From NCBI GenBank assembly GCA_965232845.1, contig OZ247428.1, positions 897,511 to 961,510 on the forward strand: 64,000 bases of DNA. The letters run 5' to 3'. The position numbers were made by a program, and so were the translations under genes. Of the stretch, positions 13,134-59,530 are shown one piece after another. Within the stretch, counting starts at the first letter, position 1. Each line of letters starts with the position of its first letter. The notes below the pieces were generated by a model. The model had not been told where the DNA came from and made no database searches. It saw only the letters and a list, made by a program, of their open reading frames with translations. The stretch comes from Dehalococcoidia bacterium (GTDB taxonomy: Bacteria; Chloroflexota; Dehalococcoidia; Lucifugimonadales; UBA3495).

Positions 13134-13164
13134 GCGCACCTCTCGACACTAAGGGTTAATGACT

Positions 13165-14673: not shown

Positions 14674-14701
14674 AGATGGGCAGTCTTGAAGACTGCCCAT
14701 C
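14674..14701 (+). terminator. Hairpin terminator after the CMD-family gene
   Basis: Perfect palindrome GATGGGCAGTCTT-ga-AAGACTGCCCATC. Weak T tail. Confidence 0.55.
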
Positions 14702-14801
14702 ATTAGTTCTCGGGATTCCTAGTAGACTGACACAGATGCATTGATGGGGGATAGGGTAGAATGGTTCAGTAGAGAGAAGGTGGAGGAGTGAGGTGAGAGT
14801 G

Positions 14802-15940: not shown

Positions 15941-15965
15941 TCTACTAGTTCGCCTCGGGTGGGGC

Positions 15966-17045: not shown

Positions 17046-17055
17046 CCAAACGAAC

Positions 17056-41650: not shown

Positions 41651-42823
41651 ATGTCATTTACCAGCTTTTTTGACTCTGTAGAAACGCCTTCCTTCGTGTA
41701 TGATGAGACGGAAGTCGGCAGAGTGCTGGATATCGCCGAATCACTGCGCCGTACGTCAGGTTGTCGCGTCCTATACTCCATTAAGCCTCTATGCTTTCCT
41801 CCATTGCTGGAATTGATGGCGGCGAAACTGGACGGTTTTGCCGTCAGTTCCCTATTCGAGGCGCGATTGGCCCGCTCCATCTTGGGTGACCGGGGGCAAT
41901 TACACTTCACTAGTCCTGGCATCCGCCCGGGGGAGCCTGAAGAACTGGCCTCACTCTGTGACTACGTTGCCTTCAACAGCTTGACCCAATGGGAAAGGCA
42001 CAGTGGGAAGTTTGTTGGGCGGGCAAGTTGTGGTTTGCGAGTTAATCCCGGCCTGTCCTTTCTTGATGATGAGAGATATGACCCCTGCCGAGAAGGTTCC
42101 AAGCTAGGAATATCCCTGGAATCCTTGTCAGAAAATTTGGGGAACCACAAGGCTTTCTTGAATGGGATAGACGGCACGCTGATTCACTCCAATTGCGAAT
42201 CTATTGACTTCAGAGAACTCGAAGAAACCGTGGCCTTGCTTGAAGAAGAGATTCCCCAATTCCTGGGACGCCTAAAGTGGATCAATTTGGGTGGGGGCTA
42301 TCTCTTCAACAAGGATGTGGATATCGGGCCGCTGCAGAGAGTCATTCGGGTGCTTCAATCTAACTGGGGACTGGACGTATACCTGGAACCGGGAGCGGCC
42401 TTTGTCCGTTCGGCTGGGTATCTTGTGGCTTCCGTGCTGGATATTTTTCCCAGCGGGCGCACGAACATTGCAGTGCTGGATACAACGGTGAACCACATGC
42501 CCGAGTTGTTGGAGTTCGATTTTGAGCCGGACATCGAGGGGCATATGAACGACGGCCAATGGGAATATACTCTCGCGGGATGCACTTGCCTGGCCGGAGA
42601 CTTGTTCGGTGAATACCGTTTCAACAAACCGCTTTCAATTGGAGACCGGATCATATTCAGAAACGTGGGTTCGTACACCCTGACTAAAGCGCACATGTTC
42701 AACGGAGTGAACCTGCCCAGCATTTATTCCCTGGGGGACCGAGGGGAGTTGAACCTGTTGAAGACTTTTGGATACGAAGACTTCTCATCTCGTTGGAATA
42801 CGCATGCCGGCAGTTCTGTTTGA
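41651..42823 (+). CDS. nspC: Carboxynorspermidine/carboxyspermidine decarboxylase (PLP, alanine-racemase fold)
   Basis: 390 aa. ETPSFVYDETEV..., PLP-Lys context VLYSIKPLCF, LDGFAVSSLFEARLA, CDYVAFNSLTQW, INLGGGY, and CLAGDLFGEY. These align by eye with Vibrio NspC blocks. Confidence 0.8.
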   Translation: MSFTSFFDSVETPSFVYDETEVGRVLDIAESLRRTSGCRVLYSIKPLCFPPLLELMAAKLDGFAVSSLFEARLARSILGDRGQLHFTSPGIRPGEPEELASLCDYVAFNSLTQWERHSGKFVGRASCGLRVNPGLSFLDDERYDPCREGSKLGISLESLSENLGNHKAFLNGIDGTLIHSNCESIDFRELEETVALLEEEIPQFLGRLKWINLGGGYLFNKDVDIGPLQRVIRVLQSNWGLDVYLEPGAAFVRSAGYLVASVLDIFPSGRTNIAVLDTTVNHMPELLEFDFEPDIEGHMNDGQWEYTLAGCTCLAGDLFGEYRFNKPLSIGDRIIFRNVGSYTLTKAHMFNGVNLPSIYSLGDRGELNLLKTFGYEDFSSRWNTHAGSSV

Positions 42824-44117
42824 AAGAGAATTAATCGTCCCCCGCAATTACCAGAAAAGGAACCCACTGTTTCACCTGGAAGGCGCTCTCCTTTCTCAGT
42901 CGGAAGGGGGAGACGTTCCAATCCGATTGGCCGTTACATCTTCCTCAGAAGAAGGCTATCACTGCGAAGTAGGTCTGCTTTCTGGCTGGGAGGGCTCAGA
43001 ATTGCCTTCCCTCTTTCGTTGTCATCGCCGGTCCCTTGAAAACAATAACCAATTCACTTGCGTGCTCCTGGTCCCCACCGGCATTGGCGCAGAGATAGGA
43101 GGCCATGCCGGGGACGCCACGCCGGTCTCGGCGCTGCTGGCGGCCGCCTGCGACACACTGATCACCCACCCTAACGTCGTTAATGCCTCGGACATAATAG
43201 ACATACCCTCAAATGCTCTCTATGTAGAGGGCAGCGTTATTAGCCGCCTTCTCTTGGGTGTTATAGGACTGCAGCCGGTGCGCAGAAACCGGGTCCTGGT
43301 GGTTTTGGGACACCATGACGACGACTTATTCATCCATGCGGCTATTAACTCTGTCAATGCGGCCAGGGCCAGTTACGGTTTGACAGTGCCCAGTATCGTA
43401 AGGTTAGGCCCGGAATTTGAAATGGAGGCCAATTACGTCGAATCTGGCAGGGCCGCGGGAAAGGTCGGGGGGCTGAACGTTCTGTTTAGCGCCTTACAGG
43501 AACGAGACCACTCCTTTGATGCGGTGGCGATAACTTCACAAATCCTTGTCCCTGCCGGTTACCACGCGGACTATTTCGAGAGCAACGGCGAGATGGTAAA
43601 TCCGTGGGGCGGAGTAGAAGCCATGCTGACTCATGCCGTTTCCACCATTTTCAATGTGCCTTCTGCTCATGCGCCTATGCTGGAAACCCAGGAAATTGCT
43701 AATGCTGACCCGGGCATCATCGACCCGCGGATGGCGGCTGAGGGCGTATCCCTTGCCCTGATACAGTCCGTATTGAAGGGCTTGCAACGGAGCCCGAGGA
43801 TAGTATCCGAACTGGAAGGGATGAATCATCCCAGCGTGATAACGGCCGCCGAAGTTTCTTGCCTGGTAATCCCGGACGGATGCGTGGGGCTACCGGTGTT
43901 GGCAGCTTTGGAGCAGGGAATACCTGTAATTGCGGTCAAGGAAAACCGCAACCTCATGAGGAACGACCTGGCTGACCTGCCCTGGGCTGAGGGACAACTT
44001 ATCCCCGTAGACAACTATTGGGAAGCAGCCGGAGTGATTTCAGCTCTCAGGGCGGGTATTGACCCTGCGGCAGTGCGTCGCCCGATTCCTCTTGCACCCG
44101 TAAATTGGCACCTGTAA
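42804..44117 (+). CDS. DUF3326-like protein of unknown function
   Basis: About 437 aa from ATG 42804 (track ORF from TTG 42768). Overlaps the nspC 3' end by at least 20 nt. Contains VLLVPTGIGAEIGGHAGDATPVSALLAAACDTLITHPNVVNASD, which I recall as the DUF3326 signature. Confidence 0.55.
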   Translation: MPAVLFERELIVPRNYQKRNPLFHLEGALLSQSEGGDVPIRLAVTSSSEEGYHCEVGLLSGWEGSELPSLFRCHRRSLENNNQFTCVLLVPTGIGAEIGGHAGDATPVSALLAAACDTLITHPNVVNASDIIDIPSNALYVEGSVISRLLLGVIGLQPVRRNRVLVVLGHHDDDLFIHAAINSVNAARASYGLTVPSIVRLGPEFEMEANYVESGRAAGKVGGLNVLFSALQERDHSFDAVAITSQILVPAGYHADYFESNGEMVNPWGGVEAMLTHAVSTIFNVPSAHAPMLETQEIANADPGIIDPRMAAEGVSLALIQSVLKGLQRSPRIVSELEGMNHPSVITAAEVSCLVIPDGCVGLPVLAALEQGIPVIAVKENRNLMRNDLADLPWAEGQLIPVDNYWEAAGVISALRAGIDPAAVRRPIPLAPVNWHL

Positions 44118-44217: not shown

Positions 44218-44496
44218 CTAGCCCGGAAGCAAGCCATCTCCGATGAAGATATGCTCGGCCTCTTCCAGCGTCAAATCGATTTCCGGTAGTATGAAGTCTG
44301 ACTCAACCAACTCATCCAACGGCAACGGCGATCCCTTTTCCCTGACCAAAGAAATCATTTCCAGAAGCAGGGAACGAAAACTCTCTTCATTCTCGGTTTC
44401 CACAGCCTCAACCATGCGGTTGTCAATGTCATTCAGGTCGTCTATTACCGCGCCCGGCAAATTGAACTGACCTTCACCTAATATTCTAACGATCAT
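44218..44496 (-). CDS. PspA-associated protein PspAA
   Basis: 92 aa, acidic. MIVRILGEGQF...DDLNDIDNRMVEAV...SFRSLLLEMISLVREKG...GLLPG. Sits 26 nt downstream of pspA with a GGGTGG RBS. Confidence 0.7.
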   Translation of the reverse strand: MIVRILGEGQFNLPGAVIDDLNDIDNRMVEAVETENEESFRSLLLEMISLVREKGSPLPLDELVESDFILPEIDLTLEEAEHIFIGDGLLPG

Positions 44497-44522
44497 CGTT
44501 CGACCACCCAGTCCTGTTGATA

Positions 44523-45302
44523 CTAGCTAGATCCCTGGTTCCTCAAGGCGTCCAATTCGGCATCTACGGCAGAACCGCTCGACGATGGCAGCGCCCTGGT
44601 CTGGCTTGCGGGGCTAATGCCCTTAAGGGCCGCCAATTCATCCTCGACGCTTTGCGAGATGGAAATCTGCGAAAGCTCCCTTTCGATATCATCCTGGGGG
44701 CCGTTAACATCATCGAGAACACCGGTGGCCACCAACTCGTCAATGGCGCCGGCCTTCGCCCGCATCTGGTCCGTTTTGTTCTCTGCACGTTGCACCGCCA
44801 GCGAGACGTCCCCCATTTCTTCCGAAATCCCGCCTAGAGCCGCCCCGATTCTTACCTGGGCCTGGGCCGCGGTGTACTGAGCCTTGATAATTTCCTTCTT
44901 GTTGCGGAAGGCGTCGACCTTAGTTTGCAGGCGCTGCTCCGCGATGGTGAGCTTCTGTTGCTCCTGCTCCATCCCCTCTATCTGTTCGTCCAACCCCTGC
45001 AATTCGATTACCGCATTTTGCTTTCGTTGGAGAGCCAGACGGGCCAGGTCCTCGCGGTCAGCATCCAGGGCTTGCTTGGCCTGACGTTCCAGCCTCGTTA
45101 TGTTTTCTTTAACCTTGGTAGCCTGCTGCTGGATGCGTCGCTTGGCCGTAACCATTTCGACGACTCCTCGCTTGACGTTCTGCAACATTTCGAGTTGCTT
45201 TTCGTAGGAATAGTCAAGAGTCTCCCGCGGGTCTTCCGCGGAATCCAATATGCGGTTCATTTTCGACTTTACGATGGTCGACATCCTTGAAAACATTCCC
45301 AT
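44523..45302 (-). CDS. pspA: PspA/IM30/Vipp1-family membrane-stress protein
   Basis: 259 aa. MGMFSRMSTIVKSKMNRILDSAEDPRETLDYSYEKQLEMLQNVKRGVVEMVTAKRRIQ, then long coiled-coil heptads and an S/A-rich tail. Confidence 0.9.
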   Translation of the reverse strand: MGMFSRMSTIVKSKMNRILDSAEDPRETLDYSYEKQLEMLQNVKRGVVEMVTAKRRIQQQATKVKENITRLERQAKQALDADREDLARLALQRKQNAVIELQGLDEQIEGMEQEQQKLTIAEQRLQTKVDAFRNKKEIIKAQYTAAQAQVRIGAALGGISEEMGDVSLAVQRAENKTDQMRAKAGAIDELVATGVLDDVNGPQDDIERELSQISISQSVEDELAALKGISPASQTRALPSSSGSAVDAELDALRNQGSS

Positions 45303-46297: not shown

Positions 46298-46900
46298 ATG
46301 TTACGGTCTCTTTTCGGCAAAGGTAAGAAAAAACGAGAACCAACGAATGCGCGCCTGGAAACGAGCATTCGAGATGCCAGGGTCGGGGACGTCGTAGTCA
46401 TCCAAGGGTTGGCCCTGGAGTACGAAGACTGTTACTTCGTAGTGGAGAATATTCATCGGTATGGGGGCAGCGGCATCGTCTGGTTTGAACTGGTGGTCGC
46501 CGACTCCGACAATCGCATTTGGCTGGAATGGTCCGAGGACGATTCCGGGCTATTTGTTACCGCAACTGACAATCGCCGCCCCGTTGGTCTGGAATCCATC
46601 GGCTTGACGGAGTCTGACCTTATGTCGATCGATGAACAACGATCGATAGACCGCTCTCTAGTTGTAGATGGATTGCGCTATATCTATCGCAATAGTTTTG
46701 AAGCCTTCTATTTTCGTGACAATAGGCCAACCAACGGCGAAGGCTTTTACATGTGGGAGTTTCTTGCGGAGGACGAGAGTCGGACCCTGGCAATAACCAA
46801 GTTTGAAGATGTCCCATTCGAAGCCCACTTCAGCGAAATAATGGACCCGGACAACGTTCACCTCTATCCCGGCGAAAGGCCGGAACACAGGAGCCGGTGA
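46298..46900 (+). CDS. DUF4178-like protein
   Basis: 200 aa. VGDVVVIQGLALEYEDCYFVVENIHRYGGSGIVWFELVVADSDNRIWLEWSEDD, then a second beta-rich repeat (YMWEFLAEDESRTLAITKFED). GGATTGGGGG RBS. Confidence 0.55.
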   Translation: MLRSLFGKGKKKREPTNARLETSIRDARVGDVVVIQGLALEYEDCYFVVENIHRYGGSGIVWFELVVADSDNRIWLEWSEDDSGLFVTATDNRRPVGLESIGLTESDLMSIDEQRSIDRSLVVDGLRYIYRNSFEAFYFRDNRPTNGEGFYMWEFLAEDESRTLAITKFEDVPFEAHFSEIMDPDNVHLYPGERPEHRSR

Positions 46901-47811
46901 GTGAGATGCTGGAAGCCCTTAACGATTCGTTAGTATTTTTCCCGAGGGGACTGATCTACGTCGCTCTTGGCGTTGTGGTGATGGTACTGGCCAAGTTTGC
47001 CAGGGATCTCACTACGAGACACAGACTGGACGAGGAAGTAGTCCAAAAGAAGAACCTCTCCGAGGCATTGCGGATATCTGGCTACTTTTTTGGAGTAGTG
47101 CTGGTATTCGTTGGCGCTGTTTACCAACCTACCTACCTGGCGCAGGTCGACATCGGTCTGGGATTCAATGCAGACTTTGGCATTGACGTTCTTCGGGTTT
47201 TCCTTTATTCACTAGCCGGCATTGTTGCGCTGAATCTGGTGCGTGTTGTGATGGACCGGCTGGTGCTCTACAAGTTAGATGTTGAAAAGCAAGTAATACA
47301 GGACCAGAACTCGGCAACAGGTGCGGCCGAGTTCGGACTATTCGTGGCCACGGGACTGGTTATCGCGGGCGTCCTTTCCGGTTCGGGAGGGGAGAGCGAA
47401 CTGTCAGAGGCCCTTATTTCCCTGGCTTTCTTTGTATTGGGGCAAATAGTGCTGGTCTTGTTCGCACTTTCTTACGAGTTTACAACCTCATTTGACATTC
47501 ACGAGGAGATCGAAAAGGACAACCTTGCAGTTGGAGTCGCCTTTGGTGGGAACCTTGTCGCCATTGGCCTGGTTATGCTCAAGGCCTTGTCCGGAGATTT
47601 TCAGGGTTGGCTGCAGGGCATAACCGAGTTCGTTATCTTTGCCTTAGTTGGATTTGTTCTGCTCTATGTGCTGAGGCTGCTGGTGGACTTGCTTGTGCTG
47701 CCAAGAGTCCGAGTTTCTGAGGAGATGTCTTCGGGCCAGAATGTGGGAGTTGCCTTTCTCGAAAGCGCCGTGGTGATCAGCTCTTCCCTGATTCTCTTCT
47801 TCGCAATTTAG
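46897..47811 (+). CDS. Integral membrane protein with duplicated DUF350-like modules
   Basis: 304 aa, about 8 predicted TM helices in two similar halves (each with ...D/EEI/V..KNL/NLA.AL/GV...). GTG 46897 overlaps the upstream TGA (GTGA); alternative ATG at 46906. Confidence 0.6.
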   Translation: MSEMLEALNDSLVFFPRGLIYVALGVVVMVLAKFARDLTTRHRLDEEVVQKKNLSEALRISGYFFGVVLVFVGAVYQPTYLAQVDIGLGFNADFGIDVLRVFLYSLAGIVALNLVRVVMDRLVLYKLDVEKQVIQDQNSATGAAEFGLFVATGLVIAGVLSGSGGESELSEALISLAFFVLGQIVLVLFALSYEFTTSFDIHEEIEKDNLAVGVAFGGNLVAIGLVMLKALSGDFQGWLQGITEFVIFALVGFVLLYVLRLLVDLLVLPRVRVSEEMSSGQNVGVAFLESAVVISSSLILFFAI

Positions 47812-47914: not shown

Positions 47915-48952
47915 CTAAGAAGGAGTAGCATTAATACTATTTCCTATTCGCGCGATTAATCGGCCTTTTCTGCCTGCTTCTTCAGCCGCTTCCAGAAGTG
48001 AAAGGCCCTGGTCCAAGATCTCTTCCAAAGGCTCGTCGGCCAGGACGCTCCGGTTCACGACAGGCTCCAACAAAGAGTTGAAGAATTCGTCCTTCCCGAT
48101 TAGCTCCGTCCAGGAATCCGCAAACTCATCAAGCGTTCCGTCGTAGAGCCTCAGCAAGAAGATGGTTCGAACCGGGTCGAGGCCGTCTAGACAATAAATG
48201 GCAGGCCGCAGATCTTCTCCATGCCCGGTACCGAACAGGGCACAGTCCGTATCGTCGTCCCATACCACGTCTCCAAAAATATCGTACTTATCGATGTACG
48301 ATTCGGTCTCCCTCAACAGGTTGCCTATGTATTGCCGGCCCTGTGACGTAATTTCTAACCTGCCACCGCCTTCAGAAAATGTGACGAGGCCCTTCAGGCA
48401 CAACTGCTGAATGGCGGCCGTATCCGGACTTCCTTCTTGAGAGTCCTTCAACCCCGGCGGTTGGTGTTCATGCTTGTCCAGGAAATAAATGGCGCTGCAG
48501 GTTTGTAGCCAGTTCAGCAAGTCGGTTTCGCCAGCCGTGTATCCATTCACTAACGCATACTCAAGCGCCTGATATTCGGGGCGCAACATCAGCGATAGTA
48601 AATTGCACTTGCCCCCGTCCTTGTCAGTGATGGGAGAAAAATACCCTTCAACGTGGCCCTCCATAGCGAGAGGGGCGCCCCTTGTATCACTCATATGCAG
48701 GGTACACAGTCCACTCCGGAATTGCTCCACCACCCCCAGGAAGTAGTCGTAAATCTCGGGCAGGTCAGGGTTCTCTTCCAAGTCGAAGGAATCCTGTATG
48801 GCCAGTTGGGACTCTTCCTCCGCTGGGAAAATCATGTCAAACAGGTAGCCAATGTCAATGGCGGCAGTTTCCCCTGGGAAATCCATTTCCAGGAAGGCGT
48901 CTTCTGGCAAACCCGCCATGGTCAGCTTTACTGTCAATCCAACAATGTTCAT
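47915..48952 (-). CDS. Hypothetical acidic cytoplasmic protein
   Basis: 345 aa, no TM or signal peptide, D/E-rich. Possible winged-helix-like stretch (LCLKGLVTFSEGGGRLEITSQGRQYIGNLL). No family recognised. Confidence 0.5.
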   Translation of the reverse strand: MNIVGLTVKLTMAGLPEDAFLEMDFPGETAAIDIGYLFDMIFPAEEESQLAIQDSFDLEENPDLPEIYDYFLGVVEQFRSGLCTLHMSDTRGAPLAMEGHVEGYFSPITDKDGGKCNLLSLMLRPEYQALEYALVNGYTAGETDLLNWLQTCSAIYFLDKHEHQPPGLKDSQEGSPDTAAIQQLCLKGLVTFSEGGGRLEITSQGRQYIGNLLRETESYIDKYDIFGDVVWDDDTDCALFGTGHGEDLRPAIYCLDGLDPVRTIFLLRLYDGTLDEFADSWTELIGKDEFFNSLLEPVVNRSVLADEPLEEILDQGLSLLEAAEEAGRKGRLIARIGNSINATPS

Positions 48953-49088: not shown

Positions 49089-49892
49089 TTACCCGCCCTT
49101 TCCCCTTAGATTCAAGTGACCGCCACCGCCAGTGAAGCTGCCGCTACGGGCGCGGCCGGACGACGAGCCGAAACTGGAACGCGAGGACCTTGAGACGGCG
49201 CTGCTGGACCTGAAGGCTCCCGAAGTCCTCTGCGTCTGCTGGTAGCTTTGCCGATTTGAACTGAGGTTACGGCTGGAGTCCTGGTAACGGGAACCGGCGA
49301 AACCCTGCTGCCTGGTGGAATACCTGCTATTTCGCGCGACCTGGCTGGCATACCGGCTGGAGCCACGGTAATTTGCCCTACTGCGCCGAATTGAAGAGCC
49401 CCGGCTGACCGGGGTGGAATAGAAATAGGGGCCCGGATAGAACGCGGTGGCCAACATATAACCGAACAGGAAGCTTCCTCCCCCAAAGCTGCTGTGGTAG
49501 TAGCCGTTGGCGTTGTGACCGCGCATTTCGTGCTGATCGTTGTTCTGTACGATGGAAAAGAGCTGGTCATCCCCAGAATCTTCGATTTCGTTGTTTCCGT
49601 TCAGGTCCTCCCAACCCTCCAGGGTCAGGTTGTCTCCGTTCTGCTGGGCGCGGATCAATATGATTCCGTCGCCTTCATAGATTTCATTTACCCGTTCTTC
49701 GAATTCGGTGGCGCTCTCGGACTCCTTAAATGCCTGCTGAACGTCGTCCAGATTTATGCGGCCGGCGGCACCGTCGGTGGCGGCCCAGGTATCATAGGAT
49801 GGACCACTGCTGCAAGCGGCTATCAGCGGGGAACCGGCCACCATGCTTCCGGCAAAAATTGCCGCGCTTAATCTCCTCAGTCTCGGTGCCAT
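49089..49892 (-). CDS. Lipoprotein with acidic N-domain, hydrophobic Gly/aromatic segment and about 100-aa Ser/Arg/Gly/Gln-rich tail
   Basis: The ATG at 49892 has a GGAG RBS 5 nt upstream. MAPRLRRLSAAIFAGSMVAGSPLIAAC-SS lipobox. ...DLNGNNEIEDSGDD...GGGSFLFGYMLATAFYPGPYFY...RGSSIRRSRANYRGSSRYASQVARNSRYS...SRSSRSSFGSSSGRARSGSFTGGGG. Confidence 0.65.
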   Translation of the reverse strand: MAPRLRRLSAAIFAGSMVAGSPLIAACSSGPSYDTWAATDGAAGRINLDDVQQAFKESESATEFEERVNEIYEGDGIILIRAQQNGDNLTLEGWEDLNGNNEIEDSGDDQLFSIVQNNDQHEMRGHNANGYYHSSFGGGSFLFGYMLATAFYPGPYFYSTPVSRGSSIRRSRANYRGSSRYASQVARNSRYSTRQQGFAGSRYQDSSRNLSSNRQSYQQTQRTSGAFRSSSAVSRSSRSSFGSSSGRARSGSFTGGGGHLNLRGKGG

Positions 49893-49985: not shown

Positions 49986-52900
49986 TCATGCTACAAGTTG
50001 ACCAATTTCCCGGCTTAACTCAGAATCTTCGGCTTTTTCGTCGGACACCCGGGTAACGGTCTGCAGGGGAAACGTCAATATGCTCGAAAGAAATAGATCA
50101 CTTAGAGTTTCCTGGAACCGGTCCCACTGCTCCGCCGCATGAATTATGTAGTCTGCAACCGCCGACTTGTGCCCGATGCTGGCAGCCACAGAACTGAAAA
50201 CTGACCGTCTCAGGATCTTCCTATGCTGCAACCAGGCCTCGTCGCCGCATTCCAGGAGCAATTGCCGTGCCAGTTCATTGAATCCCTCGATTCCGATATG
50301 GGCCCGACGGACTTCCAACATTTCCATCAGTTGATCCGCCAACCTGTGGGGAACTTCGTCCAAAGCAACCCCCCGGAGGCTGGAAAGGTCGACTTCAAAC
50401 ATATGGCGGGCATCTTCGGACAAATTAGCAAACTGTTTTGCATAGTCGATTGAGTCCATCCCTGGGAAGTGCGACTCAACCAAACGCCGGGCAGTGTCAG
50501 CAACGAAGATCGGCAGGTTCTCTGCCGGGTTGGCCTTGTTCAATAATTGGCCGCGCATTTCGTAATAGGCAGCGCTGTGCTCATCAACCACTGCAGAGTA
50601 GTCGCCAAGAACGCTGCGGCGATGGGCCGCCTCGGTCTCCGCTTCAATTTGACGACTCCTGATAAAACGCTCAACCTCTTTGCCTTCAAAGTACGTTCGA
50701 CCGCCGTTATCAACTTTGCGACACCGGTCCAGGTTAGGACCTCTCTTTCCCAATGAGAACAAAGACTGGTCGTCCCACGACAGCAGCGCCCGGGAGGAAC
50801 CAAAATTTCCCTGCCGGCCGCTTCTTCCTTTCAATTGAAGCGCAACCCGAGGGAACTGATTAAATTCAGAACTTACGACGTGCAGTCCCAAGCCAAATTC
50901 CAGAGTTGGAATGAATCCAATACCTTTGTCTGGATTGCTGGGGGCATTTTCAAGAGAGACTACCAGGGAATAACACCCTTGTTGGTCTTCTGCCGCAACC
51001 ACCAATCCGGGTAGGGCCAACAGAGATTCCCGAAGCAGTTGCCCCTCCGTCTTGGAATTGCACCGAATCCTGACATGGGGACAATCGCCGGCCATTCGAC
51101 TACGGACCCGGGCGACGCATTGACGGAGGACGTCCCGGTCCAAGTCAGCAGCCAGGACTATGTCTGTTCCGCGTCCAGCCATATTGGTAGCCACGGTAAC
51201 GGCGCCGAAATTTCCTGCAGTGCGGACTATCTCAGCCTCTTTGAAACTATTGACGGCATTTAGCACCTGGTGTCCGATGCCGGCGCTCTGCAGCGCCTGG
51301 CTGAGCTTCCAGGATTGCTCGACTGTCTGTACACCCGCCAACACCGGTCGCCCAAGCAGGTTGCATGACACAACTTCAGCTACGATGGCGGCGGTCCTAT
51401 TTTCCTCAGTCAAATATATGCGGGTAGCCAGATCGGAACGTTTTGGAGGATATGTGGTTGGTACGGACGCTACCTTTAAGGAATACCGCCGCCAAAACTC
51501 TTCGGAGGCATCGGATGCTGTTCCAGTTGTTCCGGCCAACGATGGGTAGCGGCAAACAAAACCTTGCACCGAAATCTGGGCCAGGCTCTCGTGATCCGGC
51601 TCTACCGCGACCCCCACTTTTGCCTGAAGCGCGGGCTGCAGTCCGTCCTGGTAGGAATTGTCCGGCTTAAGTCTGCCGGTGTATTTATCCAGGAGAAACA
51701 CCGAGCCGTCAGCAACCATATAGTCCACGTCTTGCACCAGGATCAAGTGCGCACGAAGGGATTGATACACCTGGTTAGCCAAGTCAAGCCGGCGCATTGC
51801 TCTGCGGGAGAGCTGACCCTCCAGACTGGCATCGACCTCATTCCTGGAAGTGGCAACGTTGAAGTCCCCCAATTGACCTTCCAGGAATGCCATACCTTTT
51901 TCGGTCAGGGTTACCAGATTCTCCTGCGGGTCTGCTATGTAATACAGGCCACCAGTCAAGGACTCATCGGGAGAGTCGTTACCATTGGGGTACAAGCCCG
52001 CCATACCCCGTCGATAGGAACGCGGGTAAATGAGGGCCAACCTTCGCAGTTGCTCGTTACGAGGACTGGCCAGCAGACCCAGGCAGACTAGAGTCGCAAA
52101 ACTGGCGTGCGATGGGTCTGTATCTCTTAATGTGGTCAGGTATTCGCTGGCTAGATCTTCCTGACGGGCCACCATTCCAGCTACCGCCCGATTGACCCGG
52201 TGCAATGGCTGGGAATTACCTACGGGAGCTCCCGCTATGATAAGCGGGGTGTCAGCTTCATCAATTAAAGCTTGGTCGACTTCATCGACTATGGCCACCT
52301 GAAGGAGCGGTTGGATTACTTCTTGCCTCCCACGAGCCAGATTGTCCCGTAGATAGTCGAAACCAAACTGGCGCAAGGTACCATACACAATGTCACACTT
52401 ATAGGCCGCTTTCCTTTCAACGTCGTCCATGGCATCAAGGATGGCGTCCACCGAGAAACCCAAAGAGTGGTAAACCTCAGCCAAGAGCCGGCAATCACGC
52501 TCGGCCAGGTAGTCGTTGGCAGTCAGGATATGAACTGAACGTCCCAGCACAGCGTGCATAACTGCGGCAAAGGCAATGGCCACCGTCTTGCCTTCCCCAG
52601 CCTGCATTTCCACGACCTTGCCTTCCAGGAGTAGAACGCCGGCAAGGAGTTGCTCATCCGTAGGGTCGTAACGGAAATTCCTTTCGGCGTCTTTGCCTTC
52701 CATCGCTTGATAGAAAGAGGCGGGAAACTGTAAGTCCAACCCGTAGCGCCCCGGGGAGGCCGATCGCGCCAACTTGATGGCGTGGACTATGTTGATTTCC
52801 TCTGAGTCCAGCTTTGCGGCGTTTGGTTCGCCGTTCGCGACTTTGAAGCAGTCACCGAAGTCGGCCTGCCTGCGAGGGTTGTTAAACAAACGCCAGGCGC

Positions 52901-53240
52901 CAAGCTTTCGCCGGATACACTCGTCGACTATGGCAAATACTGAGGGCACATAGTCAGCCGCTCCAGGGCGGCCGGAAGAGCTCTCGACTTCGGTCTTGAT
53001 GCTCTGCAGGGCTTCCTTGAGTCGAAAGTCGGAAAGGTCCTGGACCTGTAACCTGCTTCGGGAGCGACGTATTTCTTGAACCACTTCCTGCTTGCGCTGT
53101 CTCCCAGAGGCTGGCCAGGCACGCCCAAACTTGGAAGCACCATCAAACAGGGTTCGCGCAACCCTCTCCAGTCCCGCCAACCGACGGTTCGTGGCAACGG
53201 ACTCGAAAATGCCAATTGACTTTGGATTGATTGCAGCCAT
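49986..53240 (-). CDS. Divergent SecA-family ATPase (SecA paralogue)
   Basis: 1084 aa. Walker A MQAGEGKT, TANDYLAERD, FGFDYLRDNL, DEAD-box VDEVDQALIDEADTPLIIAG, PPXD-like YYIADPQENLVTLTEKG, LAGTTGTA, GRPVLAG, ATNMAGRGTDI, LKGRSGRQGNFGSS, and a helical scaffold (YSAVVDEHSAAYYEMRGQLL). GAGGG RBS. Confidence 0.8.
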   Translation of the reverse strand: MAAINPKSIGIFESVATNRRLAGLERVARTLFDGASKFGRAWPASGRQRKQEVVQEIRRSRSRLQVQDLSDFRLKEALQSIKTEVESSSGRPGAADYVPSVFAIVDECIRRKLGAWRLFNNPRRQADFGDCFKVANGEPNAAKLDSEEINIVHAIKLARSASPGRYGLDLQFPASFYQAMEGKDAERNFRYDPTDEQLLAGVLLLEGKVVEMQAGEGKTVAIAFAAVMHAVLGRSVHILTANDYLAERDCRLLAEVYHSLGFSVDAILDAMDDVERKAAYKCDIVYGTLRQFGFDYLRDNLARGRQEVIQPLLQVAIVDEVDQALIDEADTPLIIAGAPVGNSQPLHRVNRAVAGMVARQEDLASEYLTTLRDTDPSHASFATLVCLGLLASPRNEQLRRLALIYPRSYRRGMAGLYPNGNDSPDESLTGGLYYIADPQENLVTLTEKGMAFLEGQLGDFNVATSRNEVDASLEGQLSRRAMRRLDLANQVYQSLRAHLILVQDVDYMVADGSVFLLDKYTGRLKPDNSYQDGLQPALQAKVGVAVEPDHESLAQISVQGFVCRYPSLAGTTGTASDASEEFWRRYSLKVASVPTTYPPKRSDLATRIYLTEENRTAAIVAEVVSCNLLGRPVLAGVQTVEQSWKLSQALQSAGIGHQVLNAVNSFKEAEIVRTAGNFGAVTVATNMAGRGTDIVLAADLDRDVLRQCVARVRSRMAGDCPHVRIRCNSKTEGQLLRESLLALPGLVVAAEDQQGCYSLVVSLENAPSNPDKGIGFIPTLEFGLGLHVVSSEFNQFPRVALQLKGRSGRQGNFGSSRALLSWDDQSLFSLGKRGPNLDRCRKVDNGGRTYFEGKEVERFIRSRQIEAETEAAHRRSVLGDYSAVVDEHSAAYYEMRGQLLNKANPAENLPIFVADTARRLVESHFPGMDSIDYAKQFANLSEDARHMFEVDLSSLRGVALDEVPHRLADQLMEMLEVRRAHIGIEGFNELARQLLLECGDEAWLQHRKILRRSVFSSVAASIGHKSAVADYIIHAAEQWDRFQETLSDLFLSSILTFPLQTVTRVSDEKAEDSELSREIGQLVA

Positions 53241-53272: not shown

Positions 53273-54676
53273 TCAGGATAAGCGAAATACTACAAGCCCG
53301 GCATCATGGTCGGGGAGGTCCCATTCATTATAACGGAGTAGCAGGTAGTCTTTTGCCGCCAGTATATTCCCGGCTGTCGTGGGATATGAAGTTACAAACT
53401 CGCGACCCACTTCAGATTCAAAGTCCCAACAGGGGCCAATTTGCCAGCGAAATCCTGCTCGACGCGCTATAGCCCGGTAATCAGCAGCTAGTCGTTCATA
53501 GTCCTTATCGTTTCTGAAAGGCAATGGAGCAATGTAATAGTCGCCGGACAAATAAAGACCAAGCTCGTTTTCGAAAACCTGGACCATATCCGTGTCGGTT
53601 AGCCAGCCTTCCATCGCAAAGAACAGGTTTTCCGGAATGTCCTGAGGAACCCGATGGTAATAATAGTCTTCCTCGGACTCTACCATTCTCACCTTGATCG
53701 AAGGTTTGTCCTCGTAACCCAACAGGTTCTCGGCTGATTGACCGGTGAGGAATAGAAAAGGGATGTTGCCATTGGTGGCATCAACGAGGAGGGGCACATC
53801 GTCAACTTGATAAAGCAATGCGGAATGCTGCCAGTACCGCATGTACCTCCGGGCGAATCTGAAATCGAAGGTATTCAACAGATTCCTCAGCCTGGCTTCA
53901 GGGACCTGATCACGGGCGCCATCGCCGCCTATCAGATATTCTGACTCAAACCCGAAGTGGTCCGTCAGGAATTTCAACGCTTGAACTTTTTCGGTGCAAA
54001 TGCCGCCCGCCCCGGTTGCAATGTTTCGGACGGTTTCATCTCCGGTTTTGAACATCAGCTTGTCACCCACAAACCGGGAATAATTCTCGAACTCGCTGTC
54101 CCAGATGCGGCGCGCCAATACCTTGACGAGTTCCAGCCTGCTCTGATGTGAGTCAAGAAGCAATGCTTCCTCGGCAGCAGCAGGCCCGAGGTAGTGCTCC
54201 AGGGTCTCGGTTACAAATCTATTGAAGAAGTCTGGCTCATTGGCCCACCGCCGCCGGTGGAAGCCACTCCAATTTCGTGCGTATCCAACATTGGTACGGT
54301 CAATGGTCAGGTCAATTAAAGAGGTCCAAACATCGCCGACCTTGACCTCAGTCTCTTGGGGCCTGTCTACCAAATCAATCGCGCTGTTGTTCTGGGTGAC
54401 GGCAATTCCGGAGTACATGGCTATCAACCGACCCTGATCGTCGCAGGAATAAATTAGGTCCTGCAGGGCCTTCAAGGAGGTAAGAGAACCGGGGGTGATT
54501 CCCTGACGATGGAGCAACTCCTCCTCTGGGAGTCGCAAAAGGTACTTGTCCAGCAACTCTCCCACTGAACAGTCCGAGTCAGCCTGGTCCAAACGGAGAG
54601 TTACTGAACGTCCGGTATATGAATCGAGAATGCGGAGAATTCTTGGCTCTTGTACTAATTTTGGATCAACAGGCAT
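53273..54676 (-). CDS. Hypothetical protein with transglutaminase-like (papain-fold) Cys-His-Asp core
   Basis: 467 aa. GAGGIC(227)TEKVQALKFLTDHFGFESEYLIG ... YWQH(284)SALLYQVDDVPLLVD(299)ATNG. Spacings of C-57-H-15-D and the surrounding pattern fit transglutaminase-core enzymes. Flanking about 200-aa N- and 150-aa C-regions are unrecognised. Confidence 0.5.
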   Translation of the reverse strand: MPVDPKLVQEPRILRILDSYTGRSVTLRLDQADSDCSVGELLDKYLLRLPEEELLHRQGITPGSLTSLKALQDLIYSCDDQGRLIAMYSGIAVTQNNSAIDLVDRPQETEVKVGDVWTSLIDLTIDRTNVGYARNWSGFHRRRWANEPDFFNRFVTETLEHYLGPAAAEEALLLDSHQSRLELVKVLARRIWDSEFENYSRFVGDKLMFKTGDETVRNIATGAGGICTEKVQALKFLTDHFGFESEYLIGGDGARDQVPEARLRNLLNTFDFRFARRYMRYWQHSALLYQVDDVPLLVDATNGNIPFLFLTGQSAENLLGYEDKPSIKVRMVESEEDYYYHRVPQDIPENLFFAMEGWLTDTDMVQVFENELGLYLSGDYYIAPLPFRNDKDYERLAADYRAIARRAGFRWQIGPCWDFESEVGREFVTSYPTTAGNILAAKDYLLLRYNEWDLPDHDAGLVVFRLS

Positions 54677-55160: not shown

Positions 55161-55751
55161 CTACCCGCCCGCCTCAGCCAACATTTCTTCTGCAATTTCG
55201 CTCAGTTTGTCCTTGTTTAGCACCCCGTCCCATTTCTTATGCAGATCGCCGTCTGCGGTGACAAAGATGGTGGTGGGAAGGCCAAACACCCGGTGCGCCT
55301 CTACAATCGCGCCATCATCCGTGAAACCTGCCGGATAGGTTACTCCCAATTCGGCCAGCAATTCCTGGGCATTTTCCCTGGAGCCGAGTCCCAGGTATTG
55401 CCCGAGGTCAACACCAATCAGCGTAACTTTTCCCTCGTATTCATCACCGAATTCCTGAAACTCCGGCATCTCCGCACGGCAAGGAGGACATAGGCCGGCC
55501 CAGTAATTCAGCACTACCGGCTTGCCCTGGAGGTCAGACAAAGAAATTTCAGCAGAGCCCAACTGTTCTTGTCCCTGGTAAAGGCCAATCCTGAAATCCT
55601 CAACCTTGTCCCTGGATTCCGCCTCGCTTGGGGATCCCGGGTCGGTCGCACCATTATTGCACCCAGCAACCAGCAGCAAAGCAGCCACAAGGAGCGGCAA
55701 TATTGGTAGCCGGCGCGACGGAAAATTGACCTGCATCCTTCCTGTGTTCAT
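55161..55751 (-). CDS. TlpA/ResA-like thiol-disulfide oxidoreductase lipoprotein
   Basis: Signal/lipobox LLLVAGC-NNG. Thioredoxin motif LNYWAGLCPPCRAEMPEF. Start uncertain (55799, 55751 or 55736). Confidence 0.8.
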   Translation of the reverse strand: MNTGRMQVNFPSRRLPILPLLVAALLLVAGCNNGATDPGSPSEAESRDKVEDFRIGLYQGQEQLGSAEISLSDLQGKPVVLNYWAGLCPPCRAEMPEFQEFGDEYEGKVTLIGVDLGQYLGLGSRENAQELLAELGVTYPAGFTDDGAIVEAHRVFGLPTTIFVTADGDLHKKWDGVLNKDKLSEIAEEMLAEAGG

Positions 55752-55909
55752 AGTAGCCCAAGATCGTCGAGAATCATTCCTGGAGGCATCTCCCGCCAAT
55801 TAGCAACATCTGTGGCATTACTTGTTAAATTGTATTACGAGGCTTGAAGACAAGAGGATTCAAGCGGCGCCGCAGCTCCCTTATTTCACCCGGTTCAGGG
55901 TCTGGAGGT

Positions 55910-58900
55910 TCAGTTAACCAGGTTGCGCAGCCGTTCCTGAAAAATACTCAGGCGTTCCAGCGTCTGGGTGAGCCTGCGCATCCATTGGTCTCCCAGGGAG
56001 CGGGAGGAAAGCCTTATTTGCCTGTTGCCCACACTCGCCGCCGAACCAAGGGCACGTTGGAGCGGAACTTTGGCGCTCCCAACGTCTTGCCGGAGACCGA
56101 GGGTAATTCCTCCAGTGGATTGCAGCACAGATTCAACCCCGGCCGTAGCGGCCAGAACTCGCAAATCGACCAAGGTTAACAGATTCTCTACATCATCAGG
56201 CAGTAGACCAAACCGGTCCCGCATTTCATCTCGAAATGCGGGCACCTCTTCCCGGCTCTTGGCACGCGCCAAGCGCTGATAAAGTGCAAGCCTTGTCGGA
56301 GTGTGCGGGACATAACTCTCCGGAATATTGGCTGCAATTGACAGTTCTATCCTGGGTAATTCGATGGGGCCCTCAGCAGGCTGGGAATTGCCATCGCTGC
56401 CTTCGCCGGCCATAAGTTCAGACACCGCCTCTTCGAGCAATTGACCGTACAGTTCCAGGCCCACCGCATGAATCTGCCCGCTCTGGGCCGCTCCCAGCAA
56501 GTTGCCCGCGCCCCTTATTTCGAGGTCCCGCATCGCAATTCTGAAGCCAGATCCCAGATCCGATGCTTCAAGGATAGCTTGCACTCGCTTTTCGGCTGCT
56601 TCCGTTATCTGCCTGCCCCGGGGCAAGAGCAGGTACGCGTACGCTCGGTGCTCTCCCCTGCCAACCCGGCCTCGCAACTGGTATAGCTGGGAAAGCCCAA
56701 ACCGGTCGGCCCGGTCCAGAATAAGTGTGTTGACGTTGGGCATATCCAGGCCGGATTCAATGATGGTGGTGCAAACCAGGACGTCCGCTTCGCCATCCGC
56801 GAAAGCCTCCATTGCTTCTTCCAGTTCAAGCTCTGGCATTTGACCGTGCCCGATCATAAAGCGGGCTTCCGGTACAAGCTCCGCCAAATCAGCCGCTGTC
56901 TGTTCGATCGTCCGAACACGGTTGTGCAGAAAGAAGACTTGCCCGTCCCGCTCGATTTCCCGAAGGATGGCCTCTCGAACAGTTTCCTCATTGTATTCTG
57001 AGACGAAGGTTTTGACCGGCAGGCGGGCTTCTGGAGGTGTGTTCATTACGCTCATGTCCCGGATTCCCGTTAAGGCCATGTGCAGTGTTCTTGGTATGGG
57101 GGTGGCGCTTAGCGTCAGCACATCCACCTGGCTTCGCAAACGTTTCAGAGTTTCTTTATGGCCCACTCCAAACCGCTGTTCTTCATCCACTACTACTAAC
57201 CCCAGATTCTTGAAGCGGACATCCTTTTGAAGCAACCGATGGGTGCCGATAACTATGTCTACAGTTCCCTGTTCGAGGCCTTCGATTACGTCCTGCTGTT
57301 CTCTTGGGGTGCGGAAACGGCTCAACACCTCCACTTGTAGCGGAAAGGGGCTGAGGCGCTCGCTGAACGTGGCATAGTGCTGCTGGGCCAGTACGGTTGT
57401 GGGAACCAAAAGTCCCACCTGCATACCGTCTGACACGGTCTTGAAGGCGGCTCGCAAAGCCACCTCCGTTTTGCCGTACCCCACGTCTCCACAAATCAGC
57501 CGGTCCATCGGCTTGATCTGCTCCATATCAGCCTTGACTTCGTCAATGGCGCGAACCTGGTCCGGCGTCTCCTGGAAAGGAAAGGAATCTTCCAGTTCCC
57601 GTTGCCAAATGGTATCCATGCTAAATTCATGCCCTTCCGCGGCCTTCCGGGCGGCATAAAGCCTTAAGAGTTCCTCCGCCATTTCACGGGTCGATCCCTT
57701 TACTCGTTCCTTTATTCGCGCCCATTCCGCCGTCCCCAGGCGGGTCAATGTTGGCGGTTGATCCTGCGCTCCCACATAGGCTCCCACCCGGTCCAAATGG
57801 TCTGTGGGAACGTAAAGCTTGTCATTCTCAGCATATTCCAGGACCAGGAACTCCTTCTCCTCTCCGTTATCCTCCATATGAGTGGTTCCGGCAAACCTGG
57901 CAATACCGTGATCCACGTGCACCACATAGCTTCCTGGAACCAATTCTGAGAGGATAATATCCTCACCCAATTGCTCCCGGCTGCGAACCGGCCGGTAACG
58001 CCGCTCCTTGACCGTGCCGAACAATTCTGAGTCAGAGAGCAGGGTTATGCCAGGATGGTGATCATTACCTTCAGTTTCCCATCCCTCGTTAAGGAAACCT
58101 TGCACCAGGTGAACCTGCCCTGGAATTGGCGGTGCGTCCAGAGACTCTCCAATGGAGGTAGCCACGTTTGCCTCAGCGAGAACTTCGGCGAGACGGAGAG
58201 TGTGCTGGGTTATGGCGACAACTATCCGCTTTCTCTGCAAGTCGGCCGCCACTTCATCGGTAAATTGGCCAAGCTGACCGAAGTACGATTTGGGAGCGCG
58301 AAAAGAAGCATCAGCGTCGTCTGCCAACCAACTTTCGAGGTGAGCCTTGCGTGGGTGTTCCCAAATACGAGCAGAAAGCTGGTCCCATTCCAAATAGGGT
58401 GACGGGAAATTCCTGGGAAGATCGCCCCTGGTTTCCCTGCTCTCGCGCATTCGGAAGAACTTTTCCTCGAGGTCCCGTGCTTCAGTCTCCACCTGGGTCT
58501 TTCGATCCAGTACCAGGAGTCCATCGCCCGGCAGATAGTCCAGCAAATTGTGGCGATTGAGGATTCCGTTGTAGAAGGACAGCGTTTCTATGTTGGGGGT
58601 CGCAAACAACTCTACGAGTTCTTCGTCAAACCGCTCCCGCATCCAGGAGTTACAGTCCGAAAAATCCAACTCCCCTATTCGCTTTTCTATCGCGGCCCGG
58701 TCGGCCAGTTCGGGAAGCTGTTCGCGGGCGGGCATTATTTCTACGCATCCGGGGTTCGGGTTGTCTTCAGAGAGGGGGAGTGAGCGCTGAGTGTATGGAT
58801 CAAATCTGCGGATGGTATCGACCTCATCGTCCCACATTTCGATTCGGTACGGATTTTCTGCATGAGGAGGAAAGACGTCAATGATGCCGCCGCGCAAACT

Positions 58901-59530
58901 GAAGCATCCCGGGCTTTCCACCACCGGTTCGTGGCGATAGCCAAGTTTCACCCAGTCGGCCAGAAGCTGGTCGGTGCTTCGAATTCGTTGACCACGGCCA
59001 AGCCGGCGGGACGACCAATTGCCAGGTTCCAGAGCTTCAAAAACCCCGGGGGACAAGGTATATCTCAATACTGCGGCCACCGAAGCCACCACCAAGGGTG
59101 GATTCTTGCAGCCAGTTTCCCAGGAAGCCAGCGCGGACAATGCGACCAACCTCTGGTTCACGGTTCGAGAGTCTACCGCCAGGCGCTCAAATGGCAGGAC
59201 CTCGGGTTCCGGCAGCAGGTAAACGGGAGCCGTTTCGCCCAGATACGTCATCAACTGGTCATACAACGTACGGGAGTCGTCCGCACGAGGAGAAAGAACC
59301 AACGTTGGCGCTTGAGTCTTGGTCCACAGACTGGCTACGAACAGGGGCCTTACACCTCTGCGGGCAGCAAAACCCTGCCCTGACGCCTCTGGTCGCGTAT
59401 GCTTATCGTCGGTCCCAAGTGGAAAGTCATTGGCAAGTAGAGACAGAAGGCCTGGAAGCGACATCCAGAAATAAACTCCAAACTTATTACCGGCCTCACA
59501 AGGCTGGCAGTCAATAATTTGCTGCAACAA
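55910..59530 (-). CDS. mfd: Transcription-repair coupling factor
   Basis: UvrB-homology N-domain, CarD-like region (YVVHVDHGIARF), helicase motifs (CGDVGYGKTEVALRAAF, VVDEEQRFGV, TLSATPIPRTL, QLYQLRGRVGR) and TRG region. The true start is possibly the Met at 59464 (MSLPGLLSLL, GGAG RBS). Confidence 0.93.
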   Translation of the reverse strand: MLQQIIDCQPCEAGNKFGVYFWMSLPGLLSLLANDFPLGTDDKHTRPEASGQGFAARRGVRPLFVASLWTKTQAPTLVLSPRADDSRTLYDQLMTYLGETAPVYLLPEPEVLPFERLAVDSRTVNQRLVALSALASWETGCKNPPLVVASVAAVLRYTLSPGVFEALEPGNWSSRRLGRGQRIRSTDQLLADWVKLGYRHEPVVESPGCFSLRGGIIDVFPPHAENPYRIEMWDDEVDTIRRFDPYTQRSLPLSEDNPNPGCVEIMPAREQLPELADRAAIEKRIGELDFSDCNSWMRERFDEELVELFATPNIETLSFYNGILNRHNLLDYLPGDGLLVLDRKTQVETEARDLEEKFFRMRESRETRGDLPRNFPSPYLEWDQLSARIWEHPRKAHLESWLADDADASFRAPKSYFGQLGQFTDEVAADLQRKRIVVAITQHTLRLAEVLAEANVATSIGESLDAPPIPGQVHLVQGFLNEGWETEGNDHHPGITLLSDSELFGTVKERRYRPVRSREQLGEDIILSELVPGSYVVHVDHGIARFAGTTHMEDNGEEKEFLVLEYAENDKLYVPTDHLDRVGAYVGAQDQPPTLTRLGTAEWARIKERVKGSTREMAEELLRLYAARKAAEGHEFSMDTIWQRELEDSFPFQETPDQVRAIDEVKADMEQIKPMDRLICGDVGYGKTEVALRAAFKTVSDGMQVGLLVPTTVLAQQHYATFSERLSPFPLQVEVLSRFRTPREQQDVIEGLEQGTVDIVIGTHRLLQKDVRFKNLGLVVVDEEQRFGVGHKETLKRLRSQVDVLTLSATPIPRTLHMALTGIRDMSVMNTPPEARLPVKTFVSEYNEETVREAILREIERDGQVFFLHNRVRTIEQTAADLAELVPEARFMIGHGQMPELELEEAMEAFADGEADVLVCTTIIESGLDMPNVNTLILDRADRFGLSQLYQLRGRVGRGEHRAYAYLLLPRGRQITEAAEKRVQAILEASDLGSGFRIAMRDLEIRGAGNLLGAAQSGQIHAVGLELYGQLLEEAVSELMAGEGSDGNSQPAEGPIELPRIELSIAANIPESYVPHTPTRLALYQRLARAKSREEVPAFRDEMRDRFGLLPDDVENLLTLVDLRVLAATAGVESVLQSTGGITLGLRQDVGSAKVPLQRALGSAASVGNRQIRLSSRSLGDQWMRRLTQTLERLSIFQERLRNLVN

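Follow-up and report, generated by a model that had tools for sequence, protein, structure and literature searches.

According to PMC6333443, a second SecA has been described only in mycobacteria and in certain Gram-positive bacteria. Mycobacterial SecA2 works through the housekeeping SecYEG, and satS, a chaperone gene, comes after sapM, the gene of a cargo protein (PMC6333443); SecA2 proteins are also described as having no C-terminal tail (PMC7503281). A second arrangement is the accessory Sec (aSec) system of streptococci and staphylococci, which has a dedicated motor with a low-complexity Ser-rich cargo, and with cytoplasmic modifying enzymes and accessory proteins encoded in the operon (PMC5578698, PMC5076819). 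Here we analyse a stretch of 64,000 nucleotides (the window) from a Dehalococcoidia bacterium (GCA_965232845.1, contig OZ247428.1, positions 897,511 to 961,510), which carries on its reverse strand, at 49986-53240, a SecA-like gene encoding a protein of 1084 aa, P0001. This protein is almost certainly a specialised, functional SecA paralogue and is probably the motor of an undescribed cell-envelope system. Literature searches returned no description of a SecA paralogue in Chloroflexota or SAR202.

By analogy, the working mode of this locus would be most like that of the SecA2-only systems (Mycobacterium, TIGR04221; Listeria, NF012136; the Bacillus anthracis type, TIGR04397; Clostridioides difficile, PDB 6sxh/6t4h). 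As in those systems, a second SecA without a C-terminal tail exists beside SecA1 in a cell with one SecY, and, as with sapM-satS, its gene adjoins that of a likely cargo, which is followed by the gene of a possible chaperone. Unlike the SecA2-only proteins, the paralogue is larger than SecA1 rather than smaller and has kept its wing domain, and its partners, an enzyme of the arylamine N-acetyltransferase (NAT) fold, an acidic orphan protein and a DUF350 protein, are unrelated to theirs. With the SecA2 of the aSec SecA2-SecY2 systems (TIGR03714) it shares a two-helix finger that has no helix-ending proline and the combination in one locus of a motor, a candidate cargo and a candidate modifying enzyme. 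In contrast to aSec, the source genome has no SecY2, a Pfam scan of the paralogue's neighbours found neither Asp nor Gtf families, and where aSec has a giant glycosylated adhesin as cargo, the candidate here is a small lipoprotein that bears an Arg-rich tail. When compared with housekeeping SecA (TIGR00963/NF009538; PDB 6itc and 1tf5; E. coli), the paralogue has NBD1, PPXD, NBD2, the scaffold helix, the wing domain, the two-helix finger and all ATPase motifs; it differs in that it carries three insertions, lacks the C-terminal tail, the zinc finger and a conserved N-terminal helix, and is a second copy, found in fewer than one in three genomes of a single order.

The source genome is a single closed contig of 3.75 Mb which holds both the P0001 gene and a canonical secA (873 aa; C1:3510615-3512927). 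With 1020 bits, the canonical protein clears the TIGR00963 cut-off of 800; its N-terminus is of the usual kind, and it has the zinc finger CPCNSGKKYKRCC and none of the insertions found in P0001; the original prediction, that P0001 is a specialised paralogue and not the housekeeping SecA, is supported by this finding. The two proteins are approximately 35% identical, and P0001 reached 492-513 bits where the canonical SecA reached 1020. Eight NCBIfam SecA/SecA2 models matched P0001, and it fell below the curated cut-off of every one of them, the best score being 513 bits against a cut-off of 814. The scores against the housekeeping equivalogs were 494 for TIGR00963 (cut-off 800) and 513 for NF009538 (cut-off 814); those against the SecA2-only models were 377 for TIGR04221 (cut-off 725), 331 for NF012136 (cut-off 1100) and 432 for TIGR04397 (cut-off 1085); and the aSec SecA2 model TIGR03714 gave 381 (cut-off 930). 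The Pfam domains SecA_DEAD, SecA_PP_bind, P-loop_SecA and SecA_SW were recognised at 259, 62.9, 145 and 49.7 bits (gathering cut-offs 24.6, 23.5, 27 and 26.7). A second secY was sought in the source genome with TIGR00967, PF00344 and TIGR02920, down to E <= 1, and only a single SecY was detected. The open reading frame of P0001 is uninterrupted, starts with ATG, is preceded by GAGGG approximately 10 nt upstream and has the GC content of the surrounding genome; in a promoter/terminator scan the counts were at chance level.

The paralogue was present in 42 of 151 genomes of the order, with a patchy distribution by family and mostly in larger genomes, and a 400-genome sample of the phylum contained no orthologue outside the window's own genome. 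Over these two sets the family was found only in this one Dehalococcoidia order. A maximum-likelihood tree (a quick search, rooted on E. coli as sole outgroup, with a very long branch and without known SecA2 sequences) placed the paralogues in one clade with a Shimodaira-Hasegawa-like approximate likelihood ratio test (SH-aLRT) support of 100 and a stem of 1.96 substitutions per site, short forms of the protein branching first. Within the sequence set available for the tree, the clade nests among Chloroflexota SecAs. A tree uniting the paralogues with the order's own canonical SecAs had a better score (log-likelihood, lnL, +17.9) and was not rejected by the approximately unbiased test (p-AU 0.84), so that a duplication within the order fits the data. 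On this tree, which holds no known SecA2 sequences, the paralogue appears to have arisen independently inside the Chloroflexota. When the same pairs of genomes are compared, identity is 58-70% for the canonical SecAs and 34-44% for the paralogues, which points to faster evolution of the paralogues.

A profile search of 1.84 billion representatives gave about 50 paralogue-type clusters, none of which had a zinc tail, apart from thousands of canonical SecAs, and very few sequences were intermediate. Six tail-less representatives (P0279, P0312, P0332, P0357, P0361 and P0385) scored about equally on the paralogue and canonical profiles, and P0279 begins like the paralogues (…DFSMLDDSE); intermediate representatives of this type may be other accessory SecA lineages. 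Proteins of approximately 1170 aa from one family of genomes (f42), with a match over 478-1055 at 32%, were considered as a second paralogue family and rejected, as they have a normal N-terminus, score 1091 bits against TIGR00963 and are the canonical SecA of that family. Several canonical SecAs of Chloroflexota (L105, L013 of f42, and others) are long, at about 1000-1180 aa, by virtue of insertions; they have the canonical N-terminus and lie above the TIGR00963 cut-off.

The features of the paralogue gene, with the evidence for each, are as follows.

49986..53240, reverse strand: the whole gene of P0001, 1084 aa; four SecA Pfam domains, below all NCBIfam cut-offs, AlphaFold2 model.
53046..53240, reverse strand: N-terminal residues 1-65, basic (+9), replacing the canonical MLxxLLxKxFG start; residues 1-45 of low confidence.
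52887..52949, reverse strand: first half of the canonical NBD1 block, VPSVFAIVDECIRRKLG, residues 98-118; alignment with insert-less paralogues and canonical SecAs.
52662..52886, reverse strand: NBD1 insertion of 75 residues (119-193), with helices 122-135, 146-160 and 174-183 and a hairpin; alignment and AlphaFold2 model.
52584..52661, reverse strand: residues 194-219, with the second half of the split block, PTDEQLLAG, and Walker A, MQAGEGKT (212-219); family conservation and alignment.
52230..52289, reverse strand: DEAD/Walker B block, VDEVDQALIDEADTPLIIAG, residues 318-337; family conservation.
51948..52208, reverse strand: canonical PPXD stem helix (from about residue 345), then a family-specific helical insertion of about 70 residues (about 362-431); alignment and AlphaFold2 model.
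51159..51191, reverse strand: motif V, ATNMAGRGTDI, residues 684-694; family conservation.
50889..51152, reverse strand: VAR-site insertion in NBD2, about 85 residues, alpha/beta, residues 697-784; none in canonical SecAs or short paralogues.
50808..50873, reverse strand: altered block, SSEFNQFPRVALQLKGR, and motif VI, RSGRQG (806-811), residues 790-811; R798 (R566 of E. coli) retained.
50142..50195, reverse strand: tip of the two-helix finger, SSVAASIGHKSAVADYII, residues 1016-1033; family alignment.
49989..50075, reverse strand: acidic C-terminal helix with a conserved ELxxEhxxLhA end, without zinc finger or C-terminal linker (CTL).

Walker A, the DEAD block, the TGT motif (residues 572-574), motif V and motif VI are all present in P0001, as the original prediction had stated. 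Among 117 family members the residues that make up these motifs (G215, G217, K218 and T219; D319, E320 and D322; T574; G689, R690, G691 and D693; R806, R809 and G811) are invariant or nearly so, and the D327/R798 pair, equivalent to D217/R566 of E. coli, is invariant. Judged from these motifs, it is plausible that P0001 is catalytically competent.

The NBD1 block had been described as split by an insertion of roughly 70 residues, and this was confirmed, the insertion being 75 residues long. In P0001 the halves of the block are VFAIVDECIRRKLGAWRLF at residues 101-119 and YDPTDEQLLAGVLLLEG at residues 191-207; the family conserves both candidate segments, and F102, A103, E107, R111, R112, L113 and G114 are nearly invariant in it. 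The short paralogues that occur in a different family of this order (870 aa in genome G529 and 875 aa in G470) are unbroken at this point and read TTFCLVYEAIRRKLS-FRATEEQVLAG. In an alignment that included them, residues 98-118 of P0001 corresponded to the canonical PEAFAVVREASKRVFG and residues 119-193 to the insertion. Since these insert-less proteins read through, the block is split by an insertion and is not preceded by an N-terminal extension; the 135-residue extension suggested by HMMER, BLASTP and a first MAFFT alignment, which placed residues 172-197 (FPASFYQAME...) on the canonical helix, was ruled out on the same evidence. The AlphaFold2 model shows the insertion as a helical bundle plus a hairpin.

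The reported alteration of the HESRRIDNQLRGR block in NBD2 was likewise found: P0001 reads SSEFNQFPRVALQLKGR at residues 790-806, and the family consensus is ISAEFNxxPRVALQLKGRSGRQG. Because the short paralogues retain RRIDDQLRGR and have no insertion in NBD2, the altered block and both NBD insertions can be placed later in the history of the clade, whereas the PPXD helical insertion is common to every paralogue, short forms included. The insertions at the VAR site and in the PPXD and the basic N-terminus add to the features that the original prediction had listed. Residues 1-45 are gapped or variable across the family and have a predicted local distance difference test score (pLDDT) below 50, the N-terminal region is missing from the short paralogues, and the conserved amphipathic start of housekeeping SecA (MLxxLLxKxFG) is not present in P0001. 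The absence of a Cys-rich zinc finger at the C-terminus was also borne out, as P0001 ends in ...ELSREIGQLVA with no Cys cluster, while the canonical SecA of the same genome ends in CPCNSGKKYKRCCG; no paralogue has the zinc-finger tail that the canonical copy possesses. The paralogue of genome G507 (locus L014, 1136 aa) contains tandem repeats at two places: the VAR insertion of NBD2 carries (PVEPG)n and the PPXD region carries (FNDG)n; both variable sites evidently tolerate insertions, given that simple repeats are found there.

The AlphaFold2 model of P0001 is that of a complete SecA (pLDDT 83.4; predicted template modelling score, pTM, 0.83). A Foldseek search with this model returned SecA of B. 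subtilis first, at E-values of 1e-44 to 1e-47 and template modelling (TM) scores of 0.79-0.86, and the best superposition was with the substrate-engaged SecA-SecY structure 6itc_A (TM 0.86, root-mean-square deviation 5.4). To describe conservation, 243 positions that are conserved at >=90% in 34 canonical SecAs were taken as the canonical-invariant set. The paralogue family has kept 130 of these, switched 18, relaxed 91 and deleted 4, the nucleotide-binding domains being the best-kept regions. The two-helix finger, which the original prediction had singled out for inspection, is among the best-conserved C-terminal segments within the family, yet it has been rebuilt relative to canonical SecA: at the tip, 64 of the 117 members have Tyr, 35 have His and 3 have Ile, which is also the residue of P0001; Q796 has given way to His, and 109 of the 117 carry Ala in place of the helix-ending proline.

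The genes that accompany the paralogue in the window are listed below.

53273..54676, reverse strand: upstream partner, NAT-fold enzyme P0002, 467 aa; AlphaFold2 model and co-occurrence.
49089..49892, reverse strand: lipoprotein, 267 aa, candidate cargo; lipobox LIAAC, next gene after the paralogue in 66 of 67 loci.
47915..48952, reverse strand: acidic orphan protein P0124, 345 aa, net charge -41, candidate chaperone or adaptor.
46897..47811, forward strand: double-DUF350 membrane protein, about 8 transmembrane segments; co-occurrence in 42 of 43 genomes.
46298..46900, forward strand: DUF4178 protein.
44218..45302, reverse strand: PspA/IM30 (44523-45302) and PspAA (44218-44496).
41651..44117, forward strand: polyamine genes, namely a pyridoxal phosphate-dependent decarboxylase (ornithine/diaminopimelate/arginine family) and DUF3326.

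Gene order was examined in a set of 80 loci, which were gathered through the family of the upstream NAT-fold gene and all belong to metagenome-assembled genomes of Dehalococcoidia/Chloroflexota, one of them labelled SAR202; the counts refer to the 73 loci with enough downstream DNA. The paralogue was present in 67 of the 73, and in 51 of these 67 it directly follows the NAT-fold gene; the other 16 have extra genes in between, among them an RCK K+ channel (15 loci) and an AMP-binding enzyme (7 loci). Within the 67 paralogue loci the lipoprotein gene was the next gene in 66, and the acidic protein was found in 66, DUF350 in 59 and PspA in 50. Thiol peroxidase, Usp, K+ channel and PspA are among the genes around the paralogues. 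When the 151 genomes of the order were counted, the DUF350 protein was present in 43, the SecA paralogue in 42, the NAT-fold enzyme and the lipoprotein in 41 each, and the acidic protein in 37. Genomes with the paralogue account for 40 of the 41 with the lipoprotein, 40 of the 41 with the NAT-fold enzyme and all 37 with the acidic protein; the DUF350 protein and the paralogue are found together in 42 of 43 genomes, including cases in which approximately 200 kb separate their genes. In scattered sets the paralogue-lipoprotein pair stays adjacent (G529, G470, G503 and G474), with G507 as the exception.

The model of P0002 (pLDDT 90.9) has an arylamine N-acetyltransferase/transglutaminase-type fold (Foldseek E-values of 7e-5 and weaker, TM approximately 0.4), in which C227, H284 and D299 are invariant. 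It had no significant match in Pfam, NCBIfam or PDB sequences, and it was placed by the fold search alone; its relatives are 50-89% identical and hence more conserved than the SecA paralogue. The lipoprotein is a charge dipole, made up of an acidic domain (-18), a Gly/aromatic segment and a tail rich in Arg, Ser, Gln and Tyr (+18, isoelectric point 12), with R169, R172, Y175, R176, Y181, Q184, Y203 and Q221 among the invariant positions of the tail. Its middle segment is weakly hydrophobic and is not a clear transmembrane helix; therefore the tail may have to cross the membrane. The lipoprotein gene of a same-genus genome (G476:C1:233256-234050) has one in-frame TGA in the match, which could be a sequencing error, a mark of a pseudogene or a case of recoding.

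The setting resembles the PspA-polyamine-DUF350-lipoprotein operons of the E. coli yjfIJKLMC type (PMC11237479), as it contains PspA/PspAA, DUF350, DUF4178, a lipoprotein, polyamine enzymes, an amide-forming enzyme and, in many loci, the RCK K+ channel. It differs from them in that the amide-forming enzyme has the NAT fold instead of ATP-grasp, and in that the lipoprotein and the acidic protein have no detectable homology to YjfM/DUF1190 or YjfI/DUF2170. The best E-value of the lipoprotein against DUF1190 was 0.41, in 1 of 21 members, and hhalign gave a probability of <1% both for the lipoprotein against E. coli YjfM and for the acidic protein against YjfI. SecA occurs 0 times in the survey of Ravi et al. 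2024 (PMC11237479). The RefSeq name of yjfC, which lies in the PspA/DUF350 operon of E. coli K-12 (4410133-4414191), is 'peptide--spermidine ligase'; if yjfC activity yields a peptide or protein that is modified with a polyamine, the NAT-fold enzyme might, by analogy, do something comparable.

With confidence that is evenly balanced, we favour the view that P0001 is a SecA2-like dedicated export motor, for which we infer the cargo, the channel used and the roles of the acidic protein and of the enzyme. The housekeeping secA would have been duplicated in one SAR202-type Dehalococcoidia order and would then have evolved fast, losing the zinc-finger tail and the canonical N-terminus and gaining the PPXD helical insertion; later, most lineages would have gained the insertions in NBD1 and at the NBD2 VAR site. 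As the VAR site lies over the nucleotide cleft, the NBD insertions probably retune ATP turnover. The outcome would be a second ATP-driven motor devoted to a few difficult substrates, as in Gram-positive SecA2-only systems, and the most likely substrate would be the lipoprotein encoded directly downstream, with its acidic domain and strongly basic Arg/Ser-rich tail. In the cytoplasm, the acidic 345-aa protein may hold or deliver this basic tail, and either the cargo or a polyamine may be what the NAT-fold enzyme modifies. Passage would take place via the single SecYEG of the cell, the whole set forming part of a PspA/polyamine/DUF350/K+-channel envelope-stress island. That the strongly basic tail is the reason for a private motor and an acidic escort is a plausible suggestion. 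We favour the dedicated motor because the parts that push polypeptides have been kept under selection, because the C-terminal tail has been lost as in SecA2 proteins, and because the gene stands beside that of a peculiar secreted protein followed by that of a possible chaperone.

Several observations weigh against this view. The lipoprotein has a signal peptide with an ordinary lipobox, which housekeeping SecA could serve; profile searches of Pfam and PDB sequences detected no relatives of the lipoprotein or of the acidic protein, whose proposed roles are guesses; and roles other than export would account just as well for the co-occurrence with DUF350, PspA and polyamine genes. The paralogues have not conserved the lipid-binding N-terminus of canonical SecA, and the first scaffold helix has kept only 3 of its 16 canonical-invariant positions. 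In canonical SecA the scaffold helix contacts SecY. Finally, the loss of the finger proline has been reported for SecA2 proteins that have their own SecY2 (PMC7503281), and the source genome has no second SecY.

Some of these observations favour a rival explanation in which the motor works off SecY, docked on another membrane partner, the obvious candidate being the 8-transmembrane double-DUF350 protein, and moves or extracts a polypeptide such as the basic tail of the lipoprotein. We consider this unlikely, though it draws on the rebuilding of the finger, the relaxation of the scaffold helix, the loss of the N-terminal lipid anchor and the co-inheritance with DUF350 across genomes in which the genes may be far apart. 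The exchange of Q796 for His, the loss of the C-terminal tail and the absence of a SecY2 point the same way, as does the link drawn in PMC7503281 between proline loss and SecA2 proteins that do not use the housekeeping SecY. A fuller version, which we put forward with equal reserve, is that a SecA-derived motor was recruited from SecYEG into a PspA/polyamine stress system, where it would dock on DUF350, or on the basic tail of the lipoprotein with the acidic protein as adaptor, and carry out ATP-driven threading or extraction. Against this stand the PPXD clamp, the HWD and, in most members, the Tyr or bulky finger tip, all of which are kept, and the fit of the model, which is best to the SecY-bound state; moreover, DUF350 is common in bacteria without a second SecA (YjfL of E. 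coli is an example) and gives no hint of a role as a protein channel.

Less probable still is a cytoplasmic remodelling or unfolding ATPase that serves the membrane-stress module, for example by disassembling PspA (ESCRT-III-type) polymers, as Vps4 does for ESCRT-III, or by regulating the K+ channel or polyamine enzymes. We know of no dedicated disassembly ATPase in bacterial PspA systems, PspA/PspAA is found in 50 of the 67 paralogue loci, and in some lineages Usp and K+ channel genes lie in the same operon. Loci that have no PspA nearby nevertheless keep the paralogue (L006, and 17 of the 67 loci), its tightest link is with the lipoprotein and not with PspA, and the PPXD and two-helix finger, which are specific to export, stay conserved; on this evidence we regard such a role as quite improbable.

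The stress-gene setting (PspA, Usp, K+ channel and thiol peroxidase) would also suit a general back-up SecA without private cargo, induced by envelope or energy stress such as a low proton-motive force, in which the insertions and the missing tail alter regulation only. The VAR site tunes ADP release in E. coli SecA, which is in keeping with such a change. However, a back-up motor would have no need of strict co-inheritance with the lipoprotein, the acidic orphan and the NAT-fold enzyme, and the 91 relaxed and 18 switched positions among the 243 exceed what re-regulation requires, so that we hold out little prospect for this explanation. A decaying, functionless duplicate, to which the very long branch and fast evolution might point, is hardly credible in view of more than 100 members with intact frames down to approximately 40% identity, invariant catalytic residues, conserved synteny and co-occurrence, and a confidently predicted fold.

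SAR202-type Chloroflexota rank with the most abundant deep-ocean bacteria. The paralogue is a second SecA in this group, outside the mycobacteria and Gram-positive bacteria named in PMC6333443, with a different build (larger than SecA1, three insertions and a rebuilt two-helix finger) and with new partners in the NAT-fold enzyme, the charge-dipolar lipoprotein, the acidic orphan and DUF350. Through it, a translocation motor is connected with the PspA/polyamine/DUF350 stress operons, which are poorly understood and which thereby gain a testable mechanical component. The natural series that runs from short to long forms illustrates how SecA motors can be re-engineered. Should the motor prove to work without SecY, it would represent a new class of SecA-based membrane machine instead of another branch of secretion.

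The early-branching operon (L130, G529:C1:113000-132000, minus strand, 8458-18145) has the order 460-aa protein, 272-aa protein, RCK K+ channel, AMP-binding enzyme, 229-aa protein, tandem Usp, short paralogue and lipoprotein; in this genome the NAT-fold gene, the acidic-protein gene and DUF350 lie away from the operon of the short paralogue. The 460-aa first gene of this operon type (family f99) was considered as a relative of the NAT-fold enzyme and was rejected on an hhalign probability of 0.6%. In the window, an AhpC/thioredoxin-fold protein (55161-55799, reverse strand) and Mfd (55910-59530, reverse strand) are encoded upstream of the operon. This arrangement is seen in the closest relatives only, and since distant loci have other genes at this position, the AhpC-like gene and Mfd lie outside the system.

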